This document shows, piece after piece, positions 7,347 to 64,000 of a stretch of 64,000 nt of DNA; the first letter of the stretch is position 1; each line of letters opens with the position of its first letter. Below the pieces are notes generated by a model. It saw only the letters and a program-made list of their open reading frames with translations. It had not been told where the DNA came from and did no database searches. The stretch lies in the NCBI GenBank assembly GCA_965208125.1, contig OZ242320.1:3862482-3926481 (forward strand). The letters are read 5' to 3'. This stretch comes from Candidatus Latescibacterota bacterium (lineage in GTDB: Bacteria; Latescibacterota; UBA2968). Both the position numbers and the translations under genes were made by a program.

Positions 7347-10300
7347 ATGCGAGAATCAAAACAAATTCTCCTGTGGTGCATGGCGCTGAGTCTGGTTCTG
7401 TTCGGTGCTGACTTGACATTCGCCGCCACTACGGGAAAGATTTCTGGTACTGTCAGAGACGCCCAGGGGCAACCGCTTCCCGGAGCCAATGTGGTCGTCA
7501 AGGGGATGCGTTTGGGGGCTACCACAGACGCCGATGGAATTTATTTTATTCTTACCGTACCACCTGGGGTGCACACATTGACTGCCTCTCTGGTGGGCTA
7601 TGGAACGATCTCTCAAACCGATGTAAAAGTCGCCGTTGACCTGACTACGACGGTCGATTTCGCGCTGGAGGAAATAGCTCTACAGGCCACAGAATTGGTT
7701 GTGATTGCCGAGCGTCCACCTGTGGAACCGGATAAAACCACCAGCAAATACATCCTGGGATCAGAGGAAATTGAGTCGCTTCCCATCATCAGGAGCGTTT
7801 CTGGACTCCTCGCTTTACAGCCCGGCGTTTTGCCGGAGGGAAACGACATGATTCGCGGAACTGGTGCCGCGGATGTGACCTATTACATAGATGGAATCCC
7901 CATTGTGACCACCGATGGCGTGGGTGCATTTGACCGTTTCCAGTTTCAAAACACATCGGCTGTCCAGGAACTCACCGTATTGACCGGAGGATGGGAGGCA
8001 GAATATGGCAATGCCCAGGCCGGTATCATCAATCTGGTCACGCGGGAGGCAGGGGAAAACTATTCTGGACGATTGGAGTACAAGTTTGATCCTTCGGGCA
8101 AAAAACACTGGGGTAACGACGTTTACGACGCTCCTCAGTTTAGAGATAACTTGAAGTGGGGAGATGCCGCCTGGGAAAATGAGACAGATCCCGAAACGGG
8201 ACAAACTATTCACCAGCGGATCGATTATGCCGATGCAGCAGGCCATTTCATAGAGGCGAATCTATCTGGACCACTTACGCCTGACGCCGGGCTATTCGTC
8301 AGCACGCGCTTTGATCGGTCCGCCCGTTCGTTTCCTTCCTCTTCCTCGCACACTCCGGGAAATACCCGCAATACAGTCAAGCTAAATTACAATATGTCAG
8401 ACAATGTAAAGTTCAAGCTCGGGGGATTCTACCATTGGAGCAAAGGGTGGAACAACGGCACCAGTTTGGGTAGAAGCGCTACGGCCGGTGCTATCCGGGG
8501 TCTGGGAGACGGTGGGAGAAATGTCTTTCTACCGGAAGGAAGTTCTGCGGGACGGTTCACGGATAGTGAGAGTTTGATCTACGCCTCTTTGACCCACACT
8601 TTGAGTCCAAAGACATTCTATGAAGCCAAAATATCGCGCTCTTTTTCCAGGCAAGATACCAGCGATATTCCCGCAGCGACTCAGCCCCTGCGCAGGGATG
8701 CGGCCGGGTACTTCAACCTGTCGCGCGACGTGCGTGCCTACGAAATTTCAGCGCGCGCGCGTTACAACGTCAAGTTCGATATTTCCAGCCAGATCACGAG
8801 GGGACATCTGGTCAAGACCGGGGCTGACTTCACCTATTCCGACGCCTGGGCATTTGGCGAGATTGGAGAAAACGAGTCCCGTCGCGTCGTTGCCTTTTAC
8901 GCAAAAGATGGGGCTCCAGATGGAAACTTTCAGCGGGGAATCAACCCTTTTCAGTGGGGACTCTATTTGCAAGATAAGATGGAATTCAGCGGCATGATCG
9001 TCAATGCAGGCGTTCGCCTGGATGGATTCCACAATGGAGAAAAAGGCTCCGCAGTTCCACCTTTTGAAACATCACCTATGTACAACAAACTCCGACATTT
9101 TCGAAACGCACCACGGGCAGACGCCGATGCCAAAATCGCGTTCAGCCCTCGATTGGGTGTTTCACATCCCATCACCGCTGCAAGCACCATCCGGTTTTTC
9201 TATGGGAGATTTTACAAATTTCCGAATCTCTGGACGATGAACCGGCAGGTCTGGGTGGGGAGCTTTCCCGACATCGACATCAACGGCAACGGACAGATTG
9301 ATCCCGAGGAGCGGTTCAATGATCTCGGAAAGGAAAACCAGATCGGCGTTGGAAACATAGCCACACCGCCGGAGAAAACCACCAGTTTTGAGGTGGGAAC
9401 CGACTGGAACGTGGTTTCGGACTATACTTTATCGCTAACCGCCTACTACAAAACGGTAGATAATCAGTTATCTACTGGTACAACGGGCGGCGAGACGACG
9501 ATCTGGCAGGATCCCGGCACGGGAAGAACCGAGCAGATCCGTGTCAACCTGAGTATCAGATATGAGGATATCAAGGGAATTGAGCTTGGTTTCCAGAAGC
9601 GATTCAGCAATAACTTCGCGTTTCAGACGTCTTTTAACGCGCAGTGGCTATCGGGAGGGCGTGCAGGGGGAGCAGGGGACAGGTTCTTCCCGGATTCAAC
9701 GTGGGTCGCCGCTGGAAATTACTGGTTTGGCTATGAGATTCGAAACGGGCAGGAGGTTCCGATTCCACTGACCCAGGATGAGATCCGAGAAATCGGATCC
9801 AAAGCGAATCAACTTCTTCGCGACATCCAGGCAGGTGGTGGTCCCAGCAAGGGACAGGCAGGACCGAATGAACATTTTCTGGCAGCTATTGAAAAGGAAC
9901 CCGGCATCTGGGCTATCACCCCCATTCTTTCCGAGTTGAATATTGGCGGCATACGGGGCAGGGACAGAACGGCATTTGGGAGCGTGGCGTTTCTCTACCG
10001 AACGCCGAGCGATTGGGGCCCAATGGTTGGCGAAGCGGGTTTGTTCGGGAATATTCAGGCCAACATGATTTATCGCATGCAGACCGGCAGCCGGTTTGAA
10101 TACTCGCTTCCAGAAGGTGGCGTGGAGGAACGAAATGAGCCACTTCGCACCTGGGTTGATTTGAATGCCCAAAAGACGTTCTACGGCCTGAGGGACCGCT
10201 TCGATGCCACGTTGTTCGTCGAAACATACAATCTGTTCAACCAGAAAGATCGGCGGGCAAACAACTTCGATTATATTCAATGGGGTTTGAGAAGACCCAT

Positions 10301-10400
10301 ACCAACAGACCAGCTCTACAGGAATTTCGGAGATCCGAACGACAGGGCCTTTCTGGGCTCCCCAAGGCAGGTGCATTTGGGATTGAGACTCAGTTTCTAA
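7347..10400 (+). CDS. TonB-dependent receptor with N-terminal carboxypeptidase-regulatory-like domain
   Basis: 1017 aa. Signal peptide (…LTFAATTG), CarboxypepD_reg-like sandwich (GKISGTVRDAQGQPLPGANVVVKG..TDADGIYFI), plug-like segment (IRGTGAADVTYYIDGIPI) and barrel ending …HLGLRLSF. Confidence 0.85.
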   Translation: MRESKQILLWCMALSLVLFGADLTFAATTGKISGTVRDAQGQPLPGANVVVKGMRLGATTDADGIYFILTVPPGVHTLTASLVGYGTISQTDVKVAVDLTTTVDFALEEIALQATELVVIAERPPVEPDKTTSKYILGSEEIESLPIIRSVSGLLALQPGVLPEGNDMIRGTGAADVTYYIDGIPIVTTDGVGAFDRFQFQNTSAVQELTVLTGGWEAEYGNAQAGIINLVTREAGENYSGRLEYKFDPSGKKHWGNDVYDAPQFRDNLKWGDAAWENETDPETGQTIHQRIDYADAAGHFIEANLSGPLTPDAGLFVSTRFDRSARSFPSSSSHTPGNTRNTVKLNYNMSDNVKFKLGGFYHWSKGWNNGTSLGRSATAGAIRGLGDGGRNVFLPEGSSAGRFTDSESLIYASLTHTLSPKTFYEAKISRSFSRQDTSDIPAATQPLRRDAAGYFNLSRDVRAYEISARARYNVKFDISSQITRGHLVKTGADFTYSDAWAFGEIGENESRRVVAFYAKDGAPDGNFQRGINPFQWGLYLQDKMEFSGMIVNAGVRLDGFHNGEKGSAVPPFETSPMYNKLRHFRNAPRADADAKIAFSPRLGVSHPITAASTIRFFYGRFYKFPNLWTMNRQVWVGSFPDIDINGNGQIDPEERFNDLGKENQIGVGNIATPPEKTTSFEVGTDWNVVSDYTLSLTAYYKTVDNQLSTGTTGGETTIWQDPGTGRTEQIRVNLSIRYEDIKGIELGFQKRFSNNFAFQTSFNAQWLSGGRAGGAGDRFFPDSTWVAAGNYWFGYEIRNGQEVPIPLTQDEIREIGSKANQLLRDIQAGGGPSKGQAGPNEHFLAAIEKEPGIWAITPILSELNIGGIRGRDRTAFGSVAFLYRTPSDWGPMVGEAGLFGNIQANMIYRMQTGSRFEYSLPEGGVEERNEPLRTWVDLNAQKTFYGLRDRFDATLFVETYNLFNQKDRRANNFDYIQWGLRRPIPTDQLYRNFGDPNDRAFLGSPRQVHLGLRLSF

Positions 10401-10414
10401 GAGGATAAGACAAC

Positions 10415-12673
10415 ATGATTACTATAAAAAGAAGAAGCATCTTGTTTCTGCTTTTTCCATTGCTGGCGACCCTCTTGCTAACTTCGGAATTGTGGGCGCA
10501 GTCGAGTCCCTTCCAGAGGAAATTCCGACACATGACGCGGGGGAAGGTCTGGCATACGTACAGGAACGGACTCACAGGTCGGGTTCACCGACAGGTGATG
10601 AGGGATATAGCCGGTATGCAATATCCGGGTTCCATCATTCCGCTGGAACCCACCGAGTTTGAGCAATACTGGAGCTTTGTCAACTATCACTGGTATCCGA
10701 GGTTTACCCGCCGATACGACACCTCTCGGGGCGAGGGTGTAATGATTCTAACAAGAGATCACGGCACCTCGGCAGTTGGCCCGAGTCAGGAAACCGAGGA
10801 TATTCGGGAAAAGGTCTATGACATTGTCAACAGCCCGGAAAAAGATCTGGGATTTATGACCGCCTCCCACTTTACCGGGTTCAGCCCGATGTCCAACTAC
10901 TGGCCCGGAGCACCTCCAATTGTGGGTGAGCCTGTGGAAATCCACAACCACGACTATGGGCGGTATATCGGGGACGATTCTCAAGGTGAGGAAATTCTCA
11001 TCACGGCATGGTCCTCCAAAACGGGTATCAGTGTGTCGCAAAAAGCCTTTTCCTGGAGCTATCCCGACTTTGACGACTTCATCATTTACGAATATACTTT
11101 CCACAACAATGGAGACGCCAACGGAGACGGCCAGCCGGATCCCGGTATGCCCGTGCAACTCAACGACGTCTATTTTGCGTTCGTAAACATCATGACCATC
11201 TCTCAGGCGGGGTGCTTTATTTCAAGCCCGGGTGCGTGGTGGGTCGATTTCCCCGAATTGAGGGACGATTTCTACAGATACACCGGTGCAGCTAACTACG
11301 ATGGTCCGGCCGAATACGCTGACCTGAAGCTCAGCTACCACTACGACGGGGACGCGCCTTCTACTTTGTGGAATGACGTTGGTGGACCCTACGTTTCGGC
11401 GCGTCACCATTCACTGTTCAAAGGCACGGCGCGAGTCGATGGAGAACTGACAGACTTCCAGTACTTTGGGTTTGCCCCTCTGGATTATACCCCACCCTTT
11501 ACAAACGATTCGGAAAACTACGTTGCGCCAAAAGTCGCGGATCAGCCGGTGTCGGTAAAGTGGTGGGAAATCTTCAGCAGAAATAACTACACATACCCGG
11601 ATCCCAGTAATGATGGTGATGAGCAACTGTGGAACAAACTCGTCGAAGACCAGGGATTCCAATCCAACCCCACCGACATCGGTGATTACGCCCACAGTCA
11701 AACGTATGGACCATACGATATTGGTCCTGGTGAAAAAGTGAAAATCGTGGCGGTTTTTGCCGGGGGAACAGCTGCCGACGCCAAGGGTACGGGCATCATC
11801 GAATGGGCGCAAACGGGCAATCAAGACGAGGTTTCTCTGGGTCGGGAGGCCCTCGTGGATCACGTGCGCCGTGCTCAATTCGCCTACGATAGCGGCTACG
11901 ATCTGCCCGACCCGCCTCCGGATGTGCGATTTTCAGTGGGAAATAGCGAACGTGGGCAGGTTCTCCTCACATGGCCAGATGATGCCGATCGCGCGTTGGA
12001 TCCAGACTATGGCCAGGCCGACTTAAGAGCCTACCGGGTCTATCGTTCGGGGACCAAGGAAGCGGGGCCTTACAAGTTGCTGAAAGAGATTCCCGTGGGA
12101 GATGCCGCGCATTTGAGTGGCGGCACCTATTCCTTCGAGGATGAGACTTCCGCTCCCGGCTTCAACTACTGGTACTCGGTCCGCTCGGTTGATTCCGGGC
12201 ATTCATCCTGGACTAATAACGACGGTACCAAGACGCTTGCAGACCTGCCCGACAAGGTGCGACAGAATGTCCAGAGTGGCATGGAAAGCGGGCATTCCTC
12301 GCCTGAGCAGCGGATGCAGGTCTTCACCAGTCCGAAGATCCCCGCAACTGCTACCAAAGACAATTTCGGCGATGAAATCCTGGTCGTGCCCAATCCCTAT
12401 CGGGATGATGGCACACACAGGTATCCGGGATCCAGAAAGATTCGATTTACAAATATCCCCAGAAAGGCCCAGATCAAGATCTATTCTCCATCTGGAGACC
12501 TGATCTGGACGATCAATCACGATTCGCCCCTGGGAGAGGCAGAATGGAATCAGGCGCCGCGATCCTTCGCGAGGCCGGAAGTACAGTCAGGCATCTACTT
12601 CTACTCTGTGGAATCCCTTGTGGAATCATCTCAGGGGGAGATGCGGTTCGGTTCATTTGTAATCATCAAATAG
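10415..12673 (+). CDS. secreted protein of unknown function with FN3-like module and T9SS-type (FlgD-Ig/Por_Secre_tail-like) C-terminal sorting domain
   Basis: 752 aa with a signal peptide. FN3-like segment (VLLTWPDDADRA…YRVYRSG…YWYSVRSVD). The last ~90 aa (VVPNPY…IKIYSPSGDLIWTI…SGIYFYSVE…GSFVIIK) fit the T9SS CTD pattern. Confidence 0.65.
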   Translation: MITIKRRSILFLLFPLLATLLLTSELWAQSSPFQRKFRHMTRGKVWHTYRNGLTGRVHRQVMRDIAGMQYPGSIIPLEPTEFEQYWSFVNYHWYPRFTRRYDTSRGEGVMILTRDHGTSAVGPSQETEDIREKVYDIVNSPEKDLGFMTASHFTGFSPMSNYWPGAPPIVGEPVEIHNHDYGRYIGDDSQGEEILITAWSSKTGISVSQKAFSWSYPDFDDFIIYEYTFHNNGDANGDGQPDPGMPVQLNDVYFAFVNIMTISQAGCFISSPGAWWVDFPELRDDFYRYTGAANYDGPAEYADLKLSYHYDGDAPSTLWNDVGGPYVSARHHSLFKGTARVDGELTDFQYFGFAPLDYTPPFTNDSENYVAPKVADQPVSVKWWEIFSRNNYTYPDPSNDGDEQLWNKLVEDQGFQSNPTDIGDYAHSQTYGPYDIGPGEKVKIVAVFAGGTAADAKGTGIIEWAQTGNQDEVSLGREALVDHVRRAQFAYDSGYDLPDPPPDVRFSVGNSERGQVLLTWPDDADRALDPDYGQADLRAYRVYRSGTKEAGPYKLLKEIPVGDAAHLSGGTYSFEDETSAPGFNYWYSVRSVDSGHSSWTNNDGTKTLADLPDKVRQNVQSGMESGHSSPEQRMQVFTSPKIPATATKDNFGDEILVVPNPYRDDGTHRYPGSRKIRFTNIPRKAQIKIYSPSGDLIWTINHDSPLGEAEWNQAPRSFARPEVQSGIYFYSVESLVESSQGEMRFGSFVIIK

Positions 12674-55956: not shown

Positions 55957-56061
55957 TTTTGTACTCCTGAATGAAAAATCGGGTGATAACATTGGAAATA
56001 TTAAAGTATGTGTAGGTGTATTTGTCAAGTAGAGAAGGGGTTGTACGGCGATGGGATAAAA

Positions 56062-57432
56062 TCAAATAAATCCAATTATACGCCAGTATAACAGGGTCAG
56101 CGGTAGCAGTGCGATGAGCGTTACCAGAGAAATTAGCGACATTACGAGTGCGAATTGGCCCATTCGAGCATAGCGAAAGCTGTATGCGACAATAAATGGC
56201 GCGCCCTGATAGGGAATGAAAACCACGCCTGTGCCGATTGCCAGACTGAGGGCGATGGGTAGGGGCGACAGGCCGAGTTGTGGACCGAGGTCGAGTAGAA
56301 AGGGGGCGAGCACGCCGCCAACCGCAGCGGTGTCCATTAAAAAATCAAATGGCACGGCCAAATACGCTATGATGGCGAGTTGGGCAATGGGGGTTTCGAC
56401 TGTTTGGAGATGGTGGATGAATACGGATGCGAGGGCGCGGTTGAGGCCAGATTGTTCGAGGGCGTGACCAATGGCAAAAACCGCGGAGATAAATATGAGA
56501 AGGGGAAAATTGACTTTTTTGATGGTGTCAAAGGGCAGGGGACCCCAGCCGGGCAGGTAGCAGAGGAGGACGAGGCCCAGGCCGATATAGACCGGGTGAA
56601 TGCCGTGTATAATATCGGTCGTCCACAGGAGAACACCTGCGATGAGAATGCCGAGTATTTTTTTTTCGGGACCGGTCATGTGTGTGGGAACATCGGCGAT
56701 AGTGGAATGGCCCGAGAGATCGGGTTCCCGCGAGGGGCGAAATAGCAAGCGGATAAGGCCGTAGAGCAGGCCAACGCGCAGTAGGCCAATGATGGGAAAG
56801 AGATAATAGGCCCATTCGCTCCAGTAGATTGTGATATTGCGCGATTCCAAAACGCCGAGAATGACCAGGTTGGGTACGCCGGCCGTCAGGATGCCCGTGC
56901 CGCTGTAATACGTGGCGCAGGTCAGCGAGAGAACGAGGGCAGCACTGACTTTTGAGTTGGGGGCTTCGCCGAGGGTTTTGAGCAGAGAGACGACCATTGG
57001 CATCAAGATGAGGACGCGCACGACGCCAGAGGGGATCAGCAGTGCCATTGTTAGGCCCAGGATGTGCAGGCCAAAGACGAGTTGCCGATACCCACTCAGG
57101 CGACCGAGTACGCTTTGGGCCATTCGCGCCCCCAGCGGTGTTTCGGTAATGCCCAGGCTCAATGCCATTCCGGCAAAGACGAGCCAGACGGCTTTGCCGG
57201 AGAAGCCCTGAAATGTGGTTTCAAAAGAGAGAATTTTGAGAAGTGGAAAGAGTGTGAGGATGAAGATGGCGGTGTAGGAAATGGGGATGGGTTCAAAGGT
57301 CCAGAAAATAACGGTGAGCGCGGTGAGTGCGAGCGCCATGCGGGCAGATATGCCGAGGTCACTGGGAAAGATGAAAATAAATAGTGCCAGCGCGGGACCG
57401 AGGATAAGGCCAATGATTTGAGATCGGGTCAT
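56062..57432 (-). CDS. SLC13/DASS-family anion:Na+ symporter (sulfate/di-tricarboxylate type)
   Basis: 456 aa and polytopic. The N-terminal region (…LTALTVIFWTFEPIPISYTAIFILTLFPLL…FAGMALSLGI) has the DASS family pattern. Confidence 0.7.
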   Translation of the reverse strand: MTRSQIIGLILGPALALFIFIFPSDLGISARMALALTALTVIFWTFEPIPISYTAIFILTLFPLLKILSFETTFQGFSGKAVWLVFAGMALSLGITETPLGARMAQSVLGRLSGYRQLVFGLHILGLTMALLIPSGVVRVLILMPMVVSLLKTLGEAPNSKVSAALVLSLTCATYYSGTGILTAGVPNLVILGVLESRNITIYWSEWAYYLFPIIGLLRVGLLYGLIRLLFRPSREPDLSGHSTIADVPTHMTGPEKKILGILIAGVLLWTTDIIHGIHPVYIGLGLVLLCYLPGWGPLPFDTIKKVNFPLLIFISAVFAIGHALEQSGLNRALASVFIHHLQTVETPIAQLAIIAYLAVPFDFLMDTAAVGGVLAPFLLDLGPQLGLSPLPIALSLAIGTGVVFIPYQGAPFIVAYSFRYARMGQFALVMSLISLVTLIALLPLTLLYWRIIGFI

Positions 57433-57644
57433 AGGATTAGCGGTCAGCGGTCAGCTTTCAGCCCTCTCCCATCCACCCCAAAGGCGATCAATCTGTTTTA
57501 TTGTTGGGATTGGATTGGGCGATGAAACAACTAACAACATAATAGCGCAGTGAAGGAGAGACAAATGAATTGTGGGCAGATGGATTCGCTATTGATTAAG
57601 TACAAGAAATCGCGTAGTTTAGCGCGGAGAAAGGAGATAAGACT

Positions 57645-58814
57645 ATGAATTTTAGAGGCAAATTGGTTGATACGTCGCAGGTTGTGACCGTGCAAACAGA
57701 TGGCGAGCAGATCGCTGCTATTCATCGCGGGGTGGAGGGTGATGCGATTGGTGGAGATGATGTGTGGATTGCACCGGCGATTTTTGATGTGCAGGTCAAT
57801 GGTGTGGGTGGGATCAACTATAAAGCTAAAGATTTGACGGTGGAGAAAATTGTGGAGACAGCGGGGTGGATGCACAGGACTGGTACGGGTTTGTGGTGTC
57901 CAACGGTGACGACTTCATCTGAGGAAGATGCGGTTCACGGTCTGGAACTGTTGGCAAAGGCGTGTGAAGAATCAGAAGTCGCGCGCGCGTCTTTTGTCGG
58001 GTTTCACGTTGAGGGGCCTTATATCGCGTCTGAAGATGGTCCCCGCGGGGCGCATCCCCTGGCGCATGTGCGCGATCCGGATTGGGATGAATTTCAGCGG
58101 TATCAAGAAGCGGCTGGTGGGCGTATTGCGATTTTTACGCTTGCGCCCGAGCGAGACGGCGCATTGGAATTTATTGAGAAGGTGGCTGCAACAGGTGTTA
58201 TTGTTTCAATTGGTCATTCGGGTGCGAGTCCCGAGCGCATCCAGGCGGCGGTTGCCGCCGGTGCCCAAATGTCAACCCATCTGGGCAATGGCGCGCATGC
58301 CGAGTTGCCGCGCCATCCCAATTATATATGGGAACAACTCGCGGCAGATGCGTTGTGGGCAGGGATTATTCCCGATGGATTTCATCTGCCGCCTGCGGTG
58401 TTGAAGAGTTTTTATCGCGCAAAAGGCAAAGAACGCCTGTGTTTGGTGAGCGATGTGGCATCTATCGCTGGTCTGCCGCCGGGTATTTACGGCAGCGAGA
58501 GCGGGTTGGGACAGAGCGAGTTACACGCCAATGGCAAAATTTCTCTGGCGGGAACGCCTTATCTGGCGGGTGCGGGTTTGTTTTTGGATAGTGGCATTCC
58601 CAATGCCGTGCGGTTTACAGACGCTTCGCTGTCCGATGCCATTGAAATGACATCGATCAATCCGGCGCGTTTGTTGGGGATAGAAGAGCGCGTGGGGTCT
58701 GTGGAAGCCGGCAAAGAGGCGAGTCTGTCTCTGTTCCGCTGGGAAGAGGGACAGGAGAAATTGGACGTGGTGGCAACGGTGGTGCGCGGGCGGATTGTTT
58801 ATCAGGCTGCATAA
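57645..58814 (+). CDS. nagA: N-acetylglucosamine-6-phosphate deacetylase-family amidohydrolase
   Basis: 389 aa. FDVQVNGVGG (E. coli-type DVQLNG in place of HxH), GFHVEGPYI, SIGHSGAS and STHLGNG are collinear with NagA. The substrate could be a related N-acetyl-hexosamine derivative. Confidence 0.7.
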   Translation: MNFRGKLVDTSQVVTVQTDGEQIAAIHRGVEGDAIGGDDVWIAPAIFDVQVNGVGGINYKAKDLTVEKIVETAGWMHRTGTGLWCPTVTTSSEEDAVHGLELLAKACEESEVARASFVGFHVEGPYIASEDGPRGAHPLAHVRDPDWDEFQRYQEAAGGRIAIFTLAPERDGALEFIEKVAATGVIVSIGHSGASPERIQAAVAAGAQMSTHLGNGAHAELPRHPNYIWEQLAADALWAGIIPDGFHLPPAVLKSFYRAKGKERLCLVSDVASIAGLPPGIYGSESGLGQSELHANGKISLAGTPYLAGAGLFLDSGIPNAVRFTDASLSDAIEMTSINPARLLGIEERVGSVEAGKEASLSLFRWEEGQEKLDVVATVVRGRIVYQAA

Positions 58815-58825
58815 AGGAATGCGAT

Positions 58826-59674
58826 ATGGCGAAGAAAAAGGTTGTTCTAACAGGTGCATCGGGCTATGTGGCAGGGCGGATGTTGCCGGCATTGCGCGAG
58901 AGGTACGATCTGACATTGCTGGATGTGAAGACGACCAACCGCGAGAGTGAAGAGGTTGAAGGCGTGCAAGTTGTGGATTTGGAAAATCCGGATCGGGATG
59001 CGTATCGCGCCCATTTTCAAGGTGCCGATGCCGTGGTACACAGTGGGTTTAAGGGGACCGTAGATTGGCAACACACGGATTATTGGAAAGAGTCCGATAA
59101 TATTCGGATGTGCTACAATGTGTACCAAACGTGTGTCGAAGAAGGTGTGAAACGCATTGTGGTGATGAGTTCAAATCACGCATGCGATTTTTACGAGCGG
59201 TTGATCTGGGCTGACCGATTGGATTTTGCCACGACTGATATGCTGCCTTTGTCTGATAATTTTTACGGTTGGGCAAAGTCGTCGTACGAACATCTGGCTT
59301 TTGTGTTTGCAACGGGTAATGCGACCAATGGCAAGCGGTTGGAGAGTGTTCACATCCGCATTGGCGCGCCCCGAGATACCATTATGGAAGGGCAGTCGGC
59401 AGATGATTTGAAGCAGTTGCACCGGGAATTGGGCGCGTATTTGAGTGCGCGGGATTTGTCGCAATTGGTGATTAAGAGTATTGAGGCAGAGAATATTGAG
59501 GATGAAAATGGGGTGCCGTTTCAGGTGTTTTTTGGCATTAGTGGGAATACGCACCGGTTCTGGAATATCGACAATGCAAGACGCGTTGTGGGATACGCGC
59601 CAGAGGATGATAGTCAGATTCGATTTGCGGGGAATATTGCAGATATTATTCGAGAAGCGCAGAAAAAGCAATAA
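58826..59674 (+). CDS. NAD-dependent SDR, uronate-dehydrogenase-like
   Basis: 282 aa. LTGASGYVAG (Rossmann), SSNH, YGWAKSSYE (YxxxK), IRIGAP and a WNIDNARRVVGYAPED tail resemble Agrobacterium/Pseudomonas Udh. Confidence 0.6.
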   Translation: MAKKKVVLTGASGYVAGRMLPALRERYDLTLLDVKTTNRESEEVEGVQVVDLENPDRDAYRAHFQGADAVVHSGFKGTVDWQHTDYWKESDNIRMCYNVYQTCVEEGVKRIVVMSSNHACDFYERLIWADRLDFATTDMLPLSDNFYGWAKSSYEHLAFVFATGNATNGKRLESVHIRIGAPRDTIMEGQSADDLKQLHRELGAYLSARDLSQLVIKSIEAENIEDENGVPFQVFFGISGNTHRFWNIDNARRVVGYAPEDDSQIRFAGNIADIIREAQKKQ

Positions 59675-59686
59675 CGGGTTTTGAAT

Positions 59687-60811
59687 ATGAAAATTACGGG
59701 GTTTGAGACGATTCCCATTCGGGGTCGGGCGATGATTTTGAAGATGTTTACGGATGAGGGATTGGTGGGGTATGGCGAGCCGATGAATTACGAGCATTGG
59801 CGCGTGGTGGCGCAGGCTGTAGAGGATATGGCCGAGTACCTGGTGGGCAAAGATCCGCTGAATATCGAAGATCACTGGCAGGCGATGTATCGCTCGAGTT
59901 ATAGCCGGAGTATGCCGGTGTTGGTCGGTGCGCTGAGTGGGATTGAGATGGCGATGTGGGATGTGTTTGGCAAAATGGTTGGGTTGCCGGTTTGGAAACT
60001 TTTGGGTGGGAAAGTTCGCGATCGCATTCGCGTGTACACAGGTACGGGCGGGACGACGCCAGAAGAATGTGCGGAGAATGCGAGCCAGAAGGTGGCAGAG
60101 GGCTTTCGCGCTGTGAAGATGGGAGCTTCACCGAGTCCTGTGAGATTTGTCGATACGCCAGAGAAAATAGATTTTATGGTTTCTCGCGTTGCTGCTGTGC
60201 GCGAAGCTGTGGGCTATTCGGTCGATATTGCGGTGGATTTGCATCGGCGGTTGAGTCCGACGATGGCTGCGATTCTGGTGAAGGAGTTGGAGCCGCTGCG
60301 TCCTCTGTTCGCAGAGGAGCCGTGTCATCCGGAAAATAACGAGGCGTTATTGGCGCTGTCCCGGGGTACAACTGTGCCCATTGCCACGGGTGAACGGCAT
60401 TTGACGCGCTGGGGATTTCGCGAGCTCATCGAGCGAGAGATGTGCGCGATTTTGCAACCGGATATTCGCCATTGTGGGGGTATGTTGGAATTGAAAAAGA
60501 TTGCGGGGATGGCAGAGATTCACAATATGGCGATTGCACCGCATAACGCGGCAGGGCCTGTGGGGGTGGCAGCGTCGGTGCATGTGATGGCAACGATTCC
60601 AAATCTGTTGATTTGCGAGGGGGGGCATAACCGTGGAGAGGGCTTGTTTAAGACGCCTCTAATTTTTCGAGATGGTTTTATTGAATTGCCAACCGAGCCG
60701 GGTTTGGGTGTGGATATGGACGATGATACGCTCGAGGCATTGCGCGATGAATCTTATCGCCTGCGCGGGATGTTCTGGCATGAAGATGACGGTTCTTTTG
60801 CGGATTATTGA
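59687..60811 (+). CDS. enolase-superfamily sugar-acid dehydratase/cycloisomerase (paralog of 576..1721)
   Basis: GLVGYGE, SGIEMAMWDVFGK, LLGGKVRDRIRVY, VDLHRR, FAEEP, ATGER, LQPD.RHCGG and APHN. Start is ATG 59687, or TTG 59681. Confidence 0.8.
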   Translation: MKITGFETIPIRGRAMILKMFTDEGLVGYGEPMNYEHWRVVAQAVEDMAEYLVGKDPLNIEDHWQAMYRSSYSRSMPVLVGALSGIEMAMWDVFGKMVGLPVWKLLGGKVRDRIRVYTGTGGTTPEECAENASQKVAEGFRAVKMGASPSPVRFVDTPEKIDFMVSRVAAVREAVGYSVDIAVDLHRRLSPTMAAILVKELEPLRPLFAEEPCHPENNEALLALSRGTTVPIATGERHLTRWGFRELIEREMCAILQPDIRHCGGMLELKKIAGMAEIHNMAIAPHNAAGPVGVAASVHVMATIPNLLICEGGHNRGEGLFKTPLIFRDGFIELPTEPGLGVDMDDDTLEALRDESYRLRGMFWHEDDGSFADY

Positions 60812-62015
60812 GAAAAAGCGTTTGATGATCGTTGTGATTCTGTTGCTATTTGCCAGCAGTTATGTGGAGGCGATAGAGAGGGATGTGCTGGCAGTCCGGC
60901 GAGAATACAACGATGTGTCCGCTGCTGTAGATAGTCTCGTGCGGATGATGCAGGTGGCAGATGCCGAGGTGTTGAAGAAGCTGCCCGAAACGCGTCCCGA
61001 GCGCATTTTGCCCGAGGGGATGACGGCTGTGATGATTTTTTGGGCAGATGACGAAGCGCGGGTTTGGCTCAATGATTTTCCCGTGGGTGAGACCCGGTTG
61101 ACACCCGTGGAAGTAACCGTTCCGGATTTGTATTTTCAAGGACAAAATCGCCTGCGTGTGCGGTGCTGGGATACAGATAGGGTAGAGAGTGGTTTTTTGG
61201 GTGGGTTATACCTGAAAGATGGTGCTGGCAAGTTGTACCCCATTGTGGTTTCCAATGGGGCCTGGGAGACCTCAGGAGGACGGGCAACGGAAATTACTTA
61301 TGCCCATCCGATGCCGGATATTCCCGGTGCGCAACCGATTTGGGACGTGCGTATGTTTGGGTTTGTAGATATGGCCATCACATTTGACCGGGGTGCGATT
61401 GATCGCGCTGTAGAAACCGCGTCTGCAAGACCAATGGCTGCGCGGCAACAGGCGATGGATTATCACACCTTTGCCCAACAACTCGCTATTTTGCAGGGTC
61501 GGCGAGAAAAATTAAGAGCAGATTTAGCGCGTCAGGGCGATCTCAGTGTGCCGCTTTACAATTGGGAACGCGCCCGTTCTGCATCGCTGACACTGGGAAA
61601 AGCCGCGCCTTTGACTGAAAAGGTGTCGGCGCCAGTGGCAGAAAATGTGCGGTCTTGGTCGGAGAAGTTACCGGCGGTGCAGCAGCAGTTGATTTATCCA
61701 GACCGCCGCGCGTTAAAAGGAGAAGGTGCTGTAACTGCGGTCGAGGATGATGTGGTTTCCACTGCGAGTGATCGCGGTAGTCGCGAGCAGGCGTATCGCC
61801 CTCCTGAAGAGCGCGGTGGGACGAAAAGTGAAACAAAAACAAAAGATGAGGGAGTCGATGCCCAGGTGCAGCCGCAGAGGATGAGACGCGGTGGTGGGGG
61901 TGGGCAATCGAGTCAGGCTACGCGATTGGGATTGTTGTTGCCAACGCTGATAGTGGGAATTTATGTGTTATATGTGGCCATACGCTGGCAATCATTAATG
62001 GGAGAAAGCGATTGA
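60780..62015 (+). CDS. bitopic envelope protein of unknown function: N-terminal signal/anchor, beta-sandwich, coiled/disordered region, C-terminal TM helix
   Basis: The in-frame ORF starts at 60672 inside the previous gene. Plausible starts are ATG 60780, ATG 60786 or ATG 60825. Hydrophobic N-terminus (LMIVVILLLFASSYVEA), sandwich-like segment (AVMIFWADDEARVWLNDFPVGE…RLRVRCWD) and C-terminal TM (LGLLLPTLIVGIYVLYVAI). The stop overlaps the next start. Confidence 0.55.
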   Translation: MKMTVLLRIIEKKRLMIVVILLLFASSYVEAIERDVLAVRREYNDVSAAVDSLVRMMQVADAEVLKKLPETRPERILPEGMTAVMIFWADDEARVWLNDFPVGETRLTPVEVTVPDLYFQGQNRLRVRCWDTDRVESGFLGGLYLKDGAGKLYPIVVSNGAWETSGGRATEITYAHPMPDIPGAQPIWDVRMFGFVDMAITFDRGAIDRAVETASARPMAARQQAMDYHTFAQQLAILQGRREKLRADLARQGDLSVPLYNWERARSASLTLGKAAPLTEKVSAPVAENVRSWSEKLPAVQQQLIYPDRRALKGEGAVTAVEDDVVSTASDRGSREQAYRPPEERGGTKSETKTKDEGVDAQVQPQRMRRGGGGGQSSQATRLGLLLPTLIVGIYVLYVAIRWQSLMGESD

Positions 62016-62773
62016 TGTACGGATTACACTGGTCTGAATTGTTATCACTGGTTCTTTTTTGGGTGGTGTGTGCGATAGCAGGTGCATTGATTTTAATGCA
62101 ACGCTTAAGTACTATTTGTCGTTACGAAAAGCAATTTGGCCTGCCCGAGTCCAATTGGTCTGGTGCTATAATAGGTGGATTGAGCGGTGCTGGCGTGGCG
62201 AGTATTGGTATTTATTTTTATTTTTTTGCACCAGCAGCCGCGGGTTGGGTCGAGTGGACGGGGCGTTCGGCTTATGTGCTCGTTTTGGGCAGTTCGGCAG
62301 CGCATCTGGTCACGTTTATTCATTTTTGGCGGCGATGGGGTGCAGAAGGCGCGGAAACAGGTAATTTGACGGCATTGCGCCAGGAGCAGGTGGATAAATT
62401 TCGCCAGAGCCGCGAGAATTATGCGGACTTAAAAGCTCGCGATGACGAGGCAGTAGATGAGTTACTCGCTGTGTTTGGCGAGCGTTTGTTGTCCGAGCAG
62501 CGCGCTTTGAGTCGCATTCCGTTTTATGGGTATTTGGGTACTGTGTGCGGTATTTTGCTGATGGCCCAAGAGCTGACCAGACTGGATGAAGCGACCGAGA
62601 CGTTTAAGGTGTTGCGCGATATGGCAGGTGGACTGGTGCTGGCATTTCAGACAACGCTCGTCGCCTTGCTTGCCTATTTGCCGCTTCGAAAGGGCTATGA
62701 TATGTTGCTGAATCGCATGTCTGATCTGGAACGCAAATGGCTGGATATGCGCGAAGAGGAGAAAAGAGGGTGA
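62012..62773 (+). CDS. MotA/TolQ/ExbB-family proton-channel protein (divergent, 5 predicted TM)
   Basis: 253 aa. The C-terminal pair of helices (GYLGTVCGILLMAQ… and GGLVLAFQTTLVALLAYLPL) fits the MotA_ExbB signature, preceded by a cytoplasmic helical loop. The start is coupled to the upstream stop (TGATG). Confidence 0.65.
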   Translation: MMYGLHWSELLSLVLFWVVCAIAGALILMQRLSTICRYEKQFGLPESNWSGAIIGGLSGAGVASIGIYFYFFAPAAAGWVEWTGRSAYVLVLGSSAAHLVTFIHFWRRWGAEGAETGNLTALRQEQVDKFRQSRENYADLKARDDEAVDELLAVFGERLLSEQRALSRIPFYGYLGTVCGILLMAQELTRLDEATETFKVLRDMAGGLVLAFQTTLVALLAYLPLRKGYDMLLNRMSDLERKWLDMREEEKRG

Positions 62774-63192
62774 GACGACGTTTTTTACAGCGCGCGGTGG
62801 CCGAAGCCGAAGCGCACGACGTGAGCAAAGAGTTGTTCCTGGGCATTATGATGTTGATGCTGTGCCTGGGGATTATGATTTTGAATGTGTCACAGCCCGT
62901 GTGGCGCGTCTATCACCACAATCCCGAACCGGGAGATGTGGTGATTTTATATACTTCCAGAGGTCTGGCGTTTTCAGAAGATGGACGATCTGCAACACGC
63001 AGTTTGGGACCGGGCGAGTTTCGCAAAACAGTAAATGATCTGGTTGCAGAACCCGATCGGCATTTGCATCTGTTTCTGAAGGGGGGCAGCCGAGAGCGTA
63101 TGGTGAATGACGCGGCTTATGCAGATTCTCTTTTGTCTGCTGGCACAGCGGGTCAAAAGGTGCGCCCCGCCGTATATGTGCATCTGTGGTAA
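62770..63192 (+). CDS. ExbD/TolR-like single-pass partner protein
   Basis: GTG 62770 overlaps the previous stop (GTGA); ATG 62737 is the alternative. A basic N-terminus, one TM (LFLGIMMLMLCLGIMIL) and a ~100-aa periplasmic domain with an ExbD-like pattern (HLHLFLKGGSRERM…SLLSAG). Confidence 0.5.
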   Translation: MRRRFLQRAVAEAEAHDVSKELFLGIMMLMLCLGIMILNVSQPVWRVYHHNPEPGDVVILYTSRGLAFSEDGRSATRSLGPGEFRKTVNDLVAEPDRHLHLFLKGGSRERMVNDAAYADSLLSAGTAGQKVRPAVYVHLW

Positions 63193-63218
63193 ATCGCAAT
63201 ATTTCAATATTAAACAAC

Positions 63219-63250
63219 AACCCCGGTAGTAGTATCACTGGGGTTTTGTG
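63219..63250. terminator. hairpin between convergent genes (possible bidirectional terminator)
   Basis: AACCCCGGT (63219-63227) pairs with ACTGGGGTT (63237-63245) with one G-U pair, and the flanks are T-rich on both strands. It overlaps the stop of the minus-strand gene. Confidence 0.45.
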
Positions 63251-63795
63251 TTTCGTTTATCGCGTTCATCTTTGTATTTCTGCATAAAGTACTCAAAAGA
63301 GGTATTCTTACTCGACGCCGTTTCTCGATCAAATAACTTCATGATCTCCTGCATAAAATCTATTCTTGAGTCGAATCTCTCTGGTATCATACTATCAAAC
63401 TGTTCTTTTGAAATACGATCTGTTTTGTTGAAGCCTTTCCGCATTCTGATTTGACGGCGAGAATCATCATTTAGCCCAGCGAGATACCAACTTTCTATTT
63501 CCCGACGCACGATTAAAATTCGATCCTCTGATAGCTTCTCAAACTGGGATGTAATCCACTCTTTCTTGGCTGTCACGCAGGGGGAATCGTCCATGTCCGC
63601 TACAAAAATGTAATCGGCGTACGGCATAGAATTGATACTATTCAGGAAACCATTTACCTTTTTTAATTTTTGCTGACTATATTTCCAAAGAGAGACGTGA
63701 TCACAAATTTGTTTATACAGGGGGCTGATTACGCGATCAAAGAATCGTTCATCGTCGTCTCCTTCTATGAGAATAAAGAGCCTCCGATACGCCAA
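63235..63795 (-). CDS. small Toprim-fold protein (DUF4276/RloB-AbiLii/AriB-like)
   Basis: N-terminal RRLFILIEGDDDERFFDRVISPLY fits the EGxx[DE]ExF motif of DUF4276/RloB-type Toprim proteins. A later acidic cluster (FVADMDDSP) is DxD-like. I prefer the TTG at 63795, 1 nt after the upstream stop; the listed start is 63834. Confidence 0.6.
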   Translation of the reverse strand: MAYRRLFILIEGDDDERFFDRVISPLYKQICDHVSLWKYSQQKLKKVNGFLNSINSMPYADYIFVADMDDSPCVTAKKEWITSQFEKLSEDRILIVRREIESWYLAGLNDDSRRQIRMRKGFNKTDRISKEQFDSMIPERFDSRIDFMQEIMKLFDRETASSKNTSFEYFMQKYKDERDKRNTKPQ

Positions 63796-63796
63796 C

Positions 63797-64000
63797 CTAT
63801 ACCTCCAACAAGTTCTGGATAAATAGATCGTCAATACCTATTTCATTTTTCAAGAAAATTTTGATTTCATCACTATCCGCTGGCTTTGTTATCTTGGAAA
63901 ATCCTTCATCGTCTCTCGTTATGAGCAAGATATTCTCCAGATCTGCCTGTTTAACCATTTCTGGATTATGAGTTGTTGCCAGTATCTGTTTACTTCTTGA
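63797..64000 (-). CDS. partial CDS (5' end outside window): C-terminus of an ABC/AAA_21-type ATPase
   Basis: This ORF is not in the supplied track. The minus-strand frame is open from nt 64000 and reads SRSKQILATTHNPEMVKQADLENILLITRDDEGFSKI…NLLEV, with the stop at 63799-63797. ILATTHNPEM is the H-loop region typical of AAA_15/AAA_21 ATPases. Confidence 0.55.
   Translation of the reverse strand, partial: SRSKQILATTHNPEMVKQADLENILLITRDDEGFSKITKPADSDEIKIFLKNEIGIDDLFIQNLLEV

Follow-up and report, generated by a model that had tools for sequence, protein, structure and literature searches.

Bacteria possess a limited number of ion-driven motors of the 5:2 type (MotAB, ExbBD, TolQR, GldLM and ZorAB), through which energy from the inner membrane reaches the remainder of the cell envelope. 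In canonical members of the MotA/TolQ/ExbB family, the channel subunit has three transmembrane (TM) helices (ExbB and TolQ) or four (MotA), the last two of which are preceded by a large cytoplasmic domain, and the pore-lining threonine and proline residues of the TolQ family are essential. In the GldL-GldM and PorL-PorM motors, a key protonatable residue is a glutamate rather than an aspartate. The range of couplings from 5:2 motors to their outputs is an active question, and the existence of further systems of this kind is already an accepted idea. In a survey of generic ion transporter (GIT) homologues of MotA and ExbB, the gene of the B subunit was consistently located immediately 3' of that of the A subunit, and homologues of ExbD/TolR were typically below the level of sequence detection and were assigned by their position 3' of the A subunit (PMC12505986). 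In addition, transducers of the vWA type, whose function is unknown, have been found by synteny and structure prediction (PMC12204202). Here, we analysed a window of 64,000 nucleotides from the genome of a Candidatus Latescibacterota bacterium (contig OZ242320.1) and three adjacent genes near its end, which are referred to below as genes A, B and C or as the triad. Our results suggest that A-B-C probably represents a distinct, lineage-specific, ion-driven inner-membrane motor of the MotA/ExbB/TolQ class with a periplasmic partner of its own.

The genome consists of one contig of 5.75 Mb (C1), and the coordinates given below are those of the window unless they are marked C1. All three genes are located on the + strand. 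Gene A (60780..62015) starts with ATG and encodes 411 amino acids (aa); gene B (62015..62773) encodes 252 aa from its ATG, or 253 aa from an alternative in-frame TTG at 62012; and gene C (62770..63192) starts with GTG and encodes 140 aa. The ATG at 60780, the ATG at 62015 and the GTG at 62770 were each backed by the N-termini of orthologues (MKMT..., MGGLHW... and MR.RFLQR..., respectively). The three genes are translationally coupled. At the A/B junction, which reads TGATG, the stop codon of A (TGA, 62013-62015) has its last base in common with the start codon of B (ATG, 62015-62017). At the B/C junction, which reads GTGA, the stop codon of B (TGA, 62771-62773) overlaps the GTG of C (62770-62772), producing a gene overlap of 4 nt, and a GAGG is found a few bases 5' of this junction. 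A terminator scan detected no internal terminator within the triad.

Protein B is a true but atypical and divergent member of the MotA/TolQ/ExbB family. It matched the MotA_ExbB model (PF01618) at 28.7 bits over residues 165-243 only, above the gathering threshold of 22.9, and was recovered at 29.9 bits when the genome was searched in six frames with the same model. Its best NCBIfam matches were TolQ and ExbB, and PF01618 is present in the precomputed annotation of most B homologues. A profile of the B family was aligned to residues 138-212 of E. coli TolQ (8odt) with an E value of 0.02. In the numbering of this alignment, T177 of B is equivalent to T145 of TolQ, T214/T215 to T178, and P224 to P187, and these residues of B are invariant in 37 family members. 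The region comprising TM4, the following loop and TM5 is nearly invariant across the class (RIPFYGYLGTVCGILLMA...GGLVLAFQTTLVALLAYLPLRK). The hydropathy profile of B revealed five peaks, at approximately residues 10-29, 51-73, 87-105, 169-185 and 205-225, and the family average showed the same pattern. B thereby departs from the canonical topology described above: it has three N-terminal hydrophobic segments, TM1-TM3, which carry invariant glycines (G24, G55 and G59), and the cytoplasmic segment after them is short, at about 60 residues.

Protein C is a putative axle-type partner of B, with an ExbD/TolR-like architecture. Its gene lies directly 3' of the channel-subunit gene, as is the case for B-type subunits, and the protein possesses a predicted cytoplasmic N terminus and a single TM segment (residues 22-40) followed by a domain of about 100 aa, predicted to be periplasmic. 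The AlphaFold2 (AF2) model of C, with a predicted local distance difference test score (pLDDT) of 79, contains a helix at residues 2-41 and then elements in the order β-β-β-α-β-α-β, which we take to be the topology of the ExbD/TolR periplasmic domain. When this model was compared with the PDB using Foldseek, the first match was E. coli TolR (5by4; probability 0.89, E value 0.11, target TM-score 0.49), and the next were ExbD (8vgc, 8vgd, 8p9r and 8pek) and H. influenzae TolR (2jwk), with target TM-scores of 0.50-0.60. Searches of Pfam at E values up to 10 revealed no OmpA-like domain (PF00691 or another OmpA family) in A, B or C. The TM region of C (HDVSKELFLGIMMLMLxLGIMILN) is essentially invariant and represents the best-conserved part of the protein. 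An invariant glutamate, Glu21, is located directly before the 19-residue hydrophobic span, and D17, one helical turn earlier, is invariant as well. The ExbD of the same genome places its aspartate likewise (...SMAD-IVFLLLVFFLV) where C has Glu21. In the family alignment, no aspartate was found within the hydrophobic span of C.

Protein A appears to be the exported partner of the other two. The hydrophobic segment at its N terminus varies in sequence and terminates in AxA-type motifs (VEA/I, VDA/A and AEA/A), which fits a cleaved Sec-type signal peptide at approximately residues 1-31 (...YVEA/IERD). The signal is followed by a helix, predicted to be periplasmic, that precedes a β-sandwich. The AF2 model of A had a pLDDT of 73, rising above 90 in the β-sandwich, and was composed of this sandwich (82-225), a helix that forms a coiled coil (227-251), further helices (280-305), a disordered region (309-381) and a C-terminal helix (386-406). 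The disordered linker is rich in glycine and charged residues and holds the conserved short motifs SLTLGK, LIYPxxRxLKGE and AYRPPEERG. The C-terminal TM helix (residues 383-401, or up to 406; RLGLLLPTLI..Y) is accompanied by the invariant residues R382, L385 and P388, which argue for specific contacts rather than for a passive anchor. With a signal peptide at one end and a TM helix at the other, mature A would be periplasmic and tethered by its C terminus, in a mirror image of TonB and TolA. In Foldseek searches with the A model, the top match was the CBM67 region of a rhamnosidase (3w5m; probability 1.0, E value 0.015), followed by the sugar-binding domains of GH2 β-glucuronidases. The sequence profile of A was aligned with a GH2 sugar-binding domain in the PDB (7sf2, E value 0.11) over a motif that is typical of such domains ('vWvNd..vG...tP....P.l..g.Nrl.v..WD.tD'). 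The model and the profile match suggest that residues 82-225 form a galactose-binding-like, lectin-like β-sandwich, and the invariant acidic clusters FWADDEA and CWDTDxVES suggest a metal or sugar site. None of 42 members of the A family matched any Pfam model, including DUF2341 and DUF3450, and neither a TonB_C nor a TolA-III domain was matched in A or these relatives. The N-terminal SHLS/His motif used for motor binding is also absent from A, whose conserved helix is C-terminal and lacks histidine.

To examine the conservation of the locus, 84 loci were retrieved through C or B, of which 80 had sufficient flanking sequence and the other 4 were on truncated contigs. The order A-B-C was kept in 80 of the 80 loci, with an overlapping junction from A to B in 56 and from B to C in 69. 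More than 100 homologues were found for each of the three proteins. Nearly all came from metagenome-assembled genomes of Latescibacterota; some records were labelled Gemmatimonadota and one Planctomycetota. Among 168 species genomes of the phylum, C was present in 107, always as one copy. All 107 belong to the class of the window, and no genome from the other classes of Latescibacterota encoded C. Of the three proteins, C shows the highest conservation (60-97% identity). A hidden Markov model (HMM) search of 1.84 billion representative proteins with C returned one full-length cluster and fragments, all from the C family itself, which indicates that this family has no detectable relatives. The distribution of A, B and C is thus restricted, vertical, single-copy and strongly constrained; inheritance as a single copy within one class, together with an identity of at least 60% for C across that class, indicates strong selection. 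These results largely agree with a preliminary description of the locus. The three open reading frames and their TGATG and GTGA overlaps are as it had reported, and its placement of B in the MotA/TolQ/ExbB family with extra N-terminal TM segments was borne out by the MotA_ExbB match and the five-segment profile, three segments of which are N-terminal. Its picture of A as a bitopic protein with a jelly-roll domain, a charged stretch and a C-terminal TM helix was recovered as the sandwich at 82-225, the linker at 309-381 and the C-terminal helix. It had also named a lack of adjacency between A and B in other genomes as a ground for abandoning its idea; adjacency was found at every one of the 80 loci. 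The conserved TM aspartate for which it had proposed to check C was not recovered, its place being taken by Glu21.

Several lines of evidence support the interpretation of the triad as a motor. B passes the PF01618 threshold and keeps the threonine and proline positions of the TolQ pore. The position of gene C, its overlap with B and the TolR/ExbD-ranked fold of its product fit a B-type subunit, and the TM helix of C is its best-conserved part, with an invariant acidic residue laid out as in the ExbD of the same genome. The A-B-C order is universal among the loci with sufficient flank, most junctions overlap, and the invariant residues of the A helix are unusual for a passive anchor. In addition, there is a precedent in the recently described classes of motor-coupled transducers with non-TonB domains (PMC12204202). 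Canonical Ton and Tol loci are also present at other sites of the genome.

By analogy with the structures of MotAB, ExbBD and TolQR, B would probably form a pentameric channel ring, with two C helices in its pore acting as the axle. Glu21, which lies where the TM helix meets the cytoplasm, may serve as the protonatable group facing the threonine ring of B, replacing the aspartate of ExbD, TolR and MotB, and ion flow would then drive a relative rotation of the two parts. From the architecture of A, we propose that its C-terminal helix binds to the motor, perhaps through contacts with the extra helices TM1-TM3 of B. The motifs in its linker may bind the periplasmic domain of C, in the way that the 'motor box' of TonB and TolA binds ExbD and TolR. 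The linker of about 75 residues and the coiled coil could project the lectin-like β-sandwich towards a glycan-containing target, for example peptidoglycan or an outer-membrane component. Such a module would work like the Ton and Tol systems, converting ion flow into mechanical work on the envelope through a partner of inverted membrane polarity, and its action would not depend on the canonical Ton and Tol systems that the genome also encodes. The fullest form of this proposal, in which A is an inverted-polarity transducer whose C-terminal helix sits on a five-TM ring with a glutamate-based axle, so that ion flow pulls or rotates the lectin-like domain on an envelope glycan, is put forward tentatively, as a possibility that we would not yet bet on. 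If it is true, 5:2 motors would be coupled to the outer envelope in a third way, in addition to TonB/TolA and to the vWA or GldM types carried on the axle, and the triad might also cooperate with two co-distributed coiled-coil proteins, D and E, described below, in a new trans-envelope machine.

A number of observations weigh against the motor interpretation. The family match of B covers its last two helices only, at modest scores. C matched neither ExbD nor any other model in Pfam and NCBIfam at E values up to 10; the ExbD model matched none of 59 members of the C family; a genome-wide search with PF02472 found three other genes, with C absent from the matches; and the C profile returned nothing from the PDB. 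When C was compared with 48 ExbD proteins of the phylum using hhalign, the E value was 0.55, and the alignment was short but in the expected β1-β2-α1-β4 register. All of the Foldseek matches of C had E values above 0.1 and target-normalised TM-scores of just 0.49-0.60; none was significant or attained an E value of 0.001. The acidic TM residue of C is a glutamate, in contrast to the aspartate of ExbD, TolR and MotB, and the neighbourhood of the triad names no substrate or process. Membership of C in PF02472 is not demonstrable, and its link to ExbD/TolR rests on fold, topology, gene position and the acidic TM residue. The preliminary description had called this protein ExbD/TolR-like and had named failure to match the corresponding models as a ground against the idea: the single TM segment, the domain of about 100 aa, the absence of an OmpA motif and the top fold ranks of TolR and ExbD stand, while on the side of sequence every model failed. 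The Foldseek support for the folds of A and C is weak, yet it agrees with independent evidence from sequence or topology. It could be argued that the triad is not a motor at all, and that B is a degenerate ExbB-like protein and C an unrelated small bitopic protein, which together with A form a static scaffold or a periplasmic glycan sensor without ion flow. The failure of C in all ExbD/TolR sequence models, its statistically weak fold matches and its glutamate would suit this view, as would the short cytoplasmic domain of B and the restriction of its family match to about 80 residues. However, the best-conserved parts of B and C are the very helices from which known motors build their ion path, with the pore threonines and proline and with an acidic residue at the expected depth, and this conservation makes a passive scaffold hard to accept. 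Furthermore, B-type subunits are commonly undetectable by sequence (PMC12505986). We consider a non-motor role unlikely. Among systems that do use ion flow, the triad might instead be an alternative energiser of SusC-like TonB-dependent receptors, with A as a non-canonical TonB. B is closest to TolQ and ExbB; the anchor, long disordered linker and distal globular domain of A mirror the layout of TonB; and TonB-dependent transport is abundantly represented in the genome, which yielded 12 TonB_C matches and carries, at 7347 in the window, a gene for a SusC-like receptor of 1017 aa with CarboxypepD_reg and Plug domains. The preliminary description had offered energisation of this receptor as one alternative and a distinct envelope machine driven by the proton-motive force as the other. 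The receptor gene lies 53 kb from the triad, and the canonical tonB/exbBD genes that the same description had proposed to look for were found: the genome possesses an exbB-exbD-exbD-tonB operon (ExbB of 206 aa, two ExbD of 134 and 135 aa, and TonB of 215 aa) and a second locus with genes for a TonB_C-containing (tonB-like) protein, a TolQ-like and a TolR-like protein. No TonB_C-like open reading frame was detected within approximately 6 kb of the triad in the 84 loci, in line with the claim that no TonB/TolA/MotB-type partner is adjacent, and at none of these loci was the triad linked to receptors. ExbD occurs across the whole phylum, whereas the triad is confined to one class. A has neither the TonB_C domain nor the N-terminal SHLS/His helix, and its distal domain is lectin-like rather than a β-strand-pairing binder of TonB boxes. 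Given the canonical Ton and Tol loci elsewhere and the lack of TonB_C near the 84 triad loci, a role as TonB energiser is unlikely, and we give this explanation very little weight; the other alternative, a distinct envelope machine, stands as the favoured reading.

A further explanation concerns two genes, D and E, which lie immediately 3' of the triad in convergent orientation in 66-67 of the 84 loci (for example at L021:9555-11347 and L022:9345-11034 of the retrieved set). Protein D (about 260 aa) has two TM segments and a long coiled coil. Protein E (about 280 aa) has either a lipobox cysteine or a TM anchor, depending on the clade, followed by a coiled coil and a conserved C-terminal domain. 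The two genes are missing beside the triad only in the genus of the window and its closest relatives, and in that genus they are dispersed but retained: in the genome of the window, D follows a sigma-70 gene, as it does in L021, at C1:40280-41092, and E is found at C1:3164115-3164969. E was detected in 117 genomes of the phylum, none of them outside this class. They comprise the 107 genomes with C and 10 genomes that have E only; a further 15 genomes of the class, several of which are closed, lack both. A Fisher test of this association gave p = 1.5e-13, but the relatedness of the genomes makes the p value overstate the support, and because the genes are usually adjacent, co-loss by single deletions may explain much of the pattern. 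The co-distribution of C and E is a lead, and not a proof of a five-gene system. On this basis, the triad could energise a larger class-specific trans-envelope apparatus that includes D and E, perhaps for surface motility or type IX secretion. SprA was found in 167 of 168 Latescibacterota genomes (C1:5120439-5126711 in the genome of the window, which also has 16 matches to the type IX C-terminal sorting domain, Por_Secre_tail). The models of GldM (PF12081 and TIGR03517), GldL (TIGR03513) and GldN (TIGR03523) found nothing in the phylum, in searches made without a positive control. On the other side, ten genomes have E without C, D and E returned only coiled-coil noise from Pfam and PDB profiles, and the empty GldL/GldM/GldN searches are weakened by the missing control. 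Since other classes have SprA without the triad, the triad is not a general type IX motor. We regard the larger apparatus as quite improbable.

The flanks of the triad were also inspected. A GC-rich hairpin (CCCCGGU...ACUGGGG) followed by a U-tract (UUUUGUGUUU) is located on the + strand at 63214..63255, 22 nt 3' of the C stop codon, with a minimum free energy of -16.1 kcal/mol (z = -3.2 against shuffled sequences). It probably ends the operon and is perhaps a terminator in both directions; a scan for the terminator consensus missed it because its loop is longer than 8 nt. On the 5' side, the start of A lies inside the 3' end of an enolase-family gene (59681-60811), and a scan upstream of A found no sigma-70-type promoter, although such a scan is uninformative for the host phylum. 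The gene directly 5' of the triad differs by clade, being an enolase-family gene in 36 loci, an SDR gene in 21 and a gene for a secreted TPR protein in 15. Directly 3' of the triad in the window, an AT-rich segment on the minus strand covers 63235-64000 and continues to about G000:C1:3927544 (L105:717-2544), with a GC content of 0.42 compared with approximately 0.53 around it. In the genus of the window and its closest relatives, this insert occupies the site that D and E have in other families of the class. It holds a gene for an AAA_21/AAA_15 ATPase of 421 aa and, overlapping with it, one for a protein of 199 aa without a Pfam match, which together look like a defence-type pair. The GC skew of the + strand was very strong and persistent, at 0.22-0.34 in 1-kb windows across 56000-63000 and approximately zero in the insert after 63200. 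As for the triad itself, assignment to a Zorya-like or other anti-phage defence system was considered and rejected, because PADLOC models gave no real match (none for B and C, and only a chance-level match of A to Csx19, E value 0.028) and because the triad is a core, single-copy feature across one class. At the distant SusC-like receptor (7347-12673), the receptor gene is followed, at the position expected for a SusD-like partner, by a gene for a 752-aa protein without a Pfam match. The literature that we found on Latescibacteria and ExbB consisted of generic genome surveys, and no paper mentioning the triad was found.

Two other loci with MotA_ExbB genes were noted in the same genome. The first, at C1:3681947-3687316, encodes a 306-aa protein whose N-terminal helix contains an aspartate (LDLFASAMGAF) and is followed by a coiled coil and by a C-terminal part that is probably of the vWA type. 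A MotA_ExbB protein of 261 aa, FHA-like proteins and a Ser/Thr kinase are encoded with it. This locus appears to belong to the class described as 'TPH-vWA plus TolQ-like, no TolR' (PMC12204202); the MotA_ExbB match was computed and the remaining features were read from the translations. The second, an atypical motor locus at C1:4861044-4865644 (- strand), encodes a MotA_ExbB protein of 437 aa that matched at 43.8 bits and contains an insert of about 180 aa on the periplasmic side; a weakly ExbD-like protein of 176 aa, which has an aspartate (FIDVLFLLL) and scored 19.8 bits with PF02472, under the cut-off; a membrane protein of 453 aa that is rich in proline; and a TPR protein.

Compared with known motors, the triad most resembles ExbB-ExbD-TonB and TolQ-TolR-TolA. 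As in these systems, the channel subunit belongs to PF01618, is closest to TolQ/ExbB and keeps the pore threonines and proline; a small bitopic protein with a TolR/ExbD-like predicted fold and no OmpA domain is encoded directly 3' of it; and in the third protein, a long disordered linker separates the membrane helix from a distal globular domain. However, B has five hydrophobic segments instead of three and a much shorter cytoplasmic domain, and C is invisible to ExbD models and has a glutamate in place of the aspartate. A is anchored at its C terminus after export by a signal peptide, so that its helix runs in the direction opposite to those of TonB and TolA; it has no SHLS/His motif and, instead of a TonB_C or TolA-III domain, carries a predicted galactose-binding-like β-sandwich; and it is encoded 5' of the motor genes. 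The triad also shares features with the GIT homologues of MotA/ExbB, which are non-flagellar, have condensed cytoplasmic domains and a divergent B subunit encoded 3', and associate a periplasmic β-sandwich or coiled-coil module with their A subunit (PMC12505986). In those proteins, the N-terminal appendages (DUF2341 and DUF3450) are fused to the channel, whereas the triad has its module on a polypeptide apart from the channel, which is provided with a C-terminal TM helix of its own and whose family matches no Pfam model, these two included. The vWA transducers and TPH-vWA partners likewise pair TolQ-like motors with non-TonB periplasmic domains, but they bear vWA domains and are anchored at the N terminus by an SHLS helix or an aspartate-containing pore helix (PMC12204202); the triad, by contrast, keeps a separate ExbD-like subunit and adds a C-terminally anchored, lectin-like protein. 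The GldL-GldM and PorL-PorM motors are 5:2-type envelope motors from the same superphylum, with a periplasm-spanning partner composed of β-sandwich domains. GldL, however, is not a member of PF01618 and has two TM helices, with its glutamate on the ring subunit and not on the axle, while GldM is anchored at the N terminus and is itself the axle; no sequence relation of either to the triad was found.

To the known range of couplings, the triad would add a channel with two extra helices, a glutamate axle that has moved beyond sequence recognition, and a partner with a reversed helix that ends in a lectin-like domain. Although the phylum is uncultured, the small size and strong conservation of the three proteins, whose genes share one operon, make them well suited to heterologous expression and cryo-electron microscopy. 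What sets the triad apart from the systems described so far is the combination of a five-segment channel, a putative glutamate axle and a separate, C-terminally anchored β-sandwich partner, with two of the three components (A and C) drawn from families without a Pfam model and all three confined to one class.

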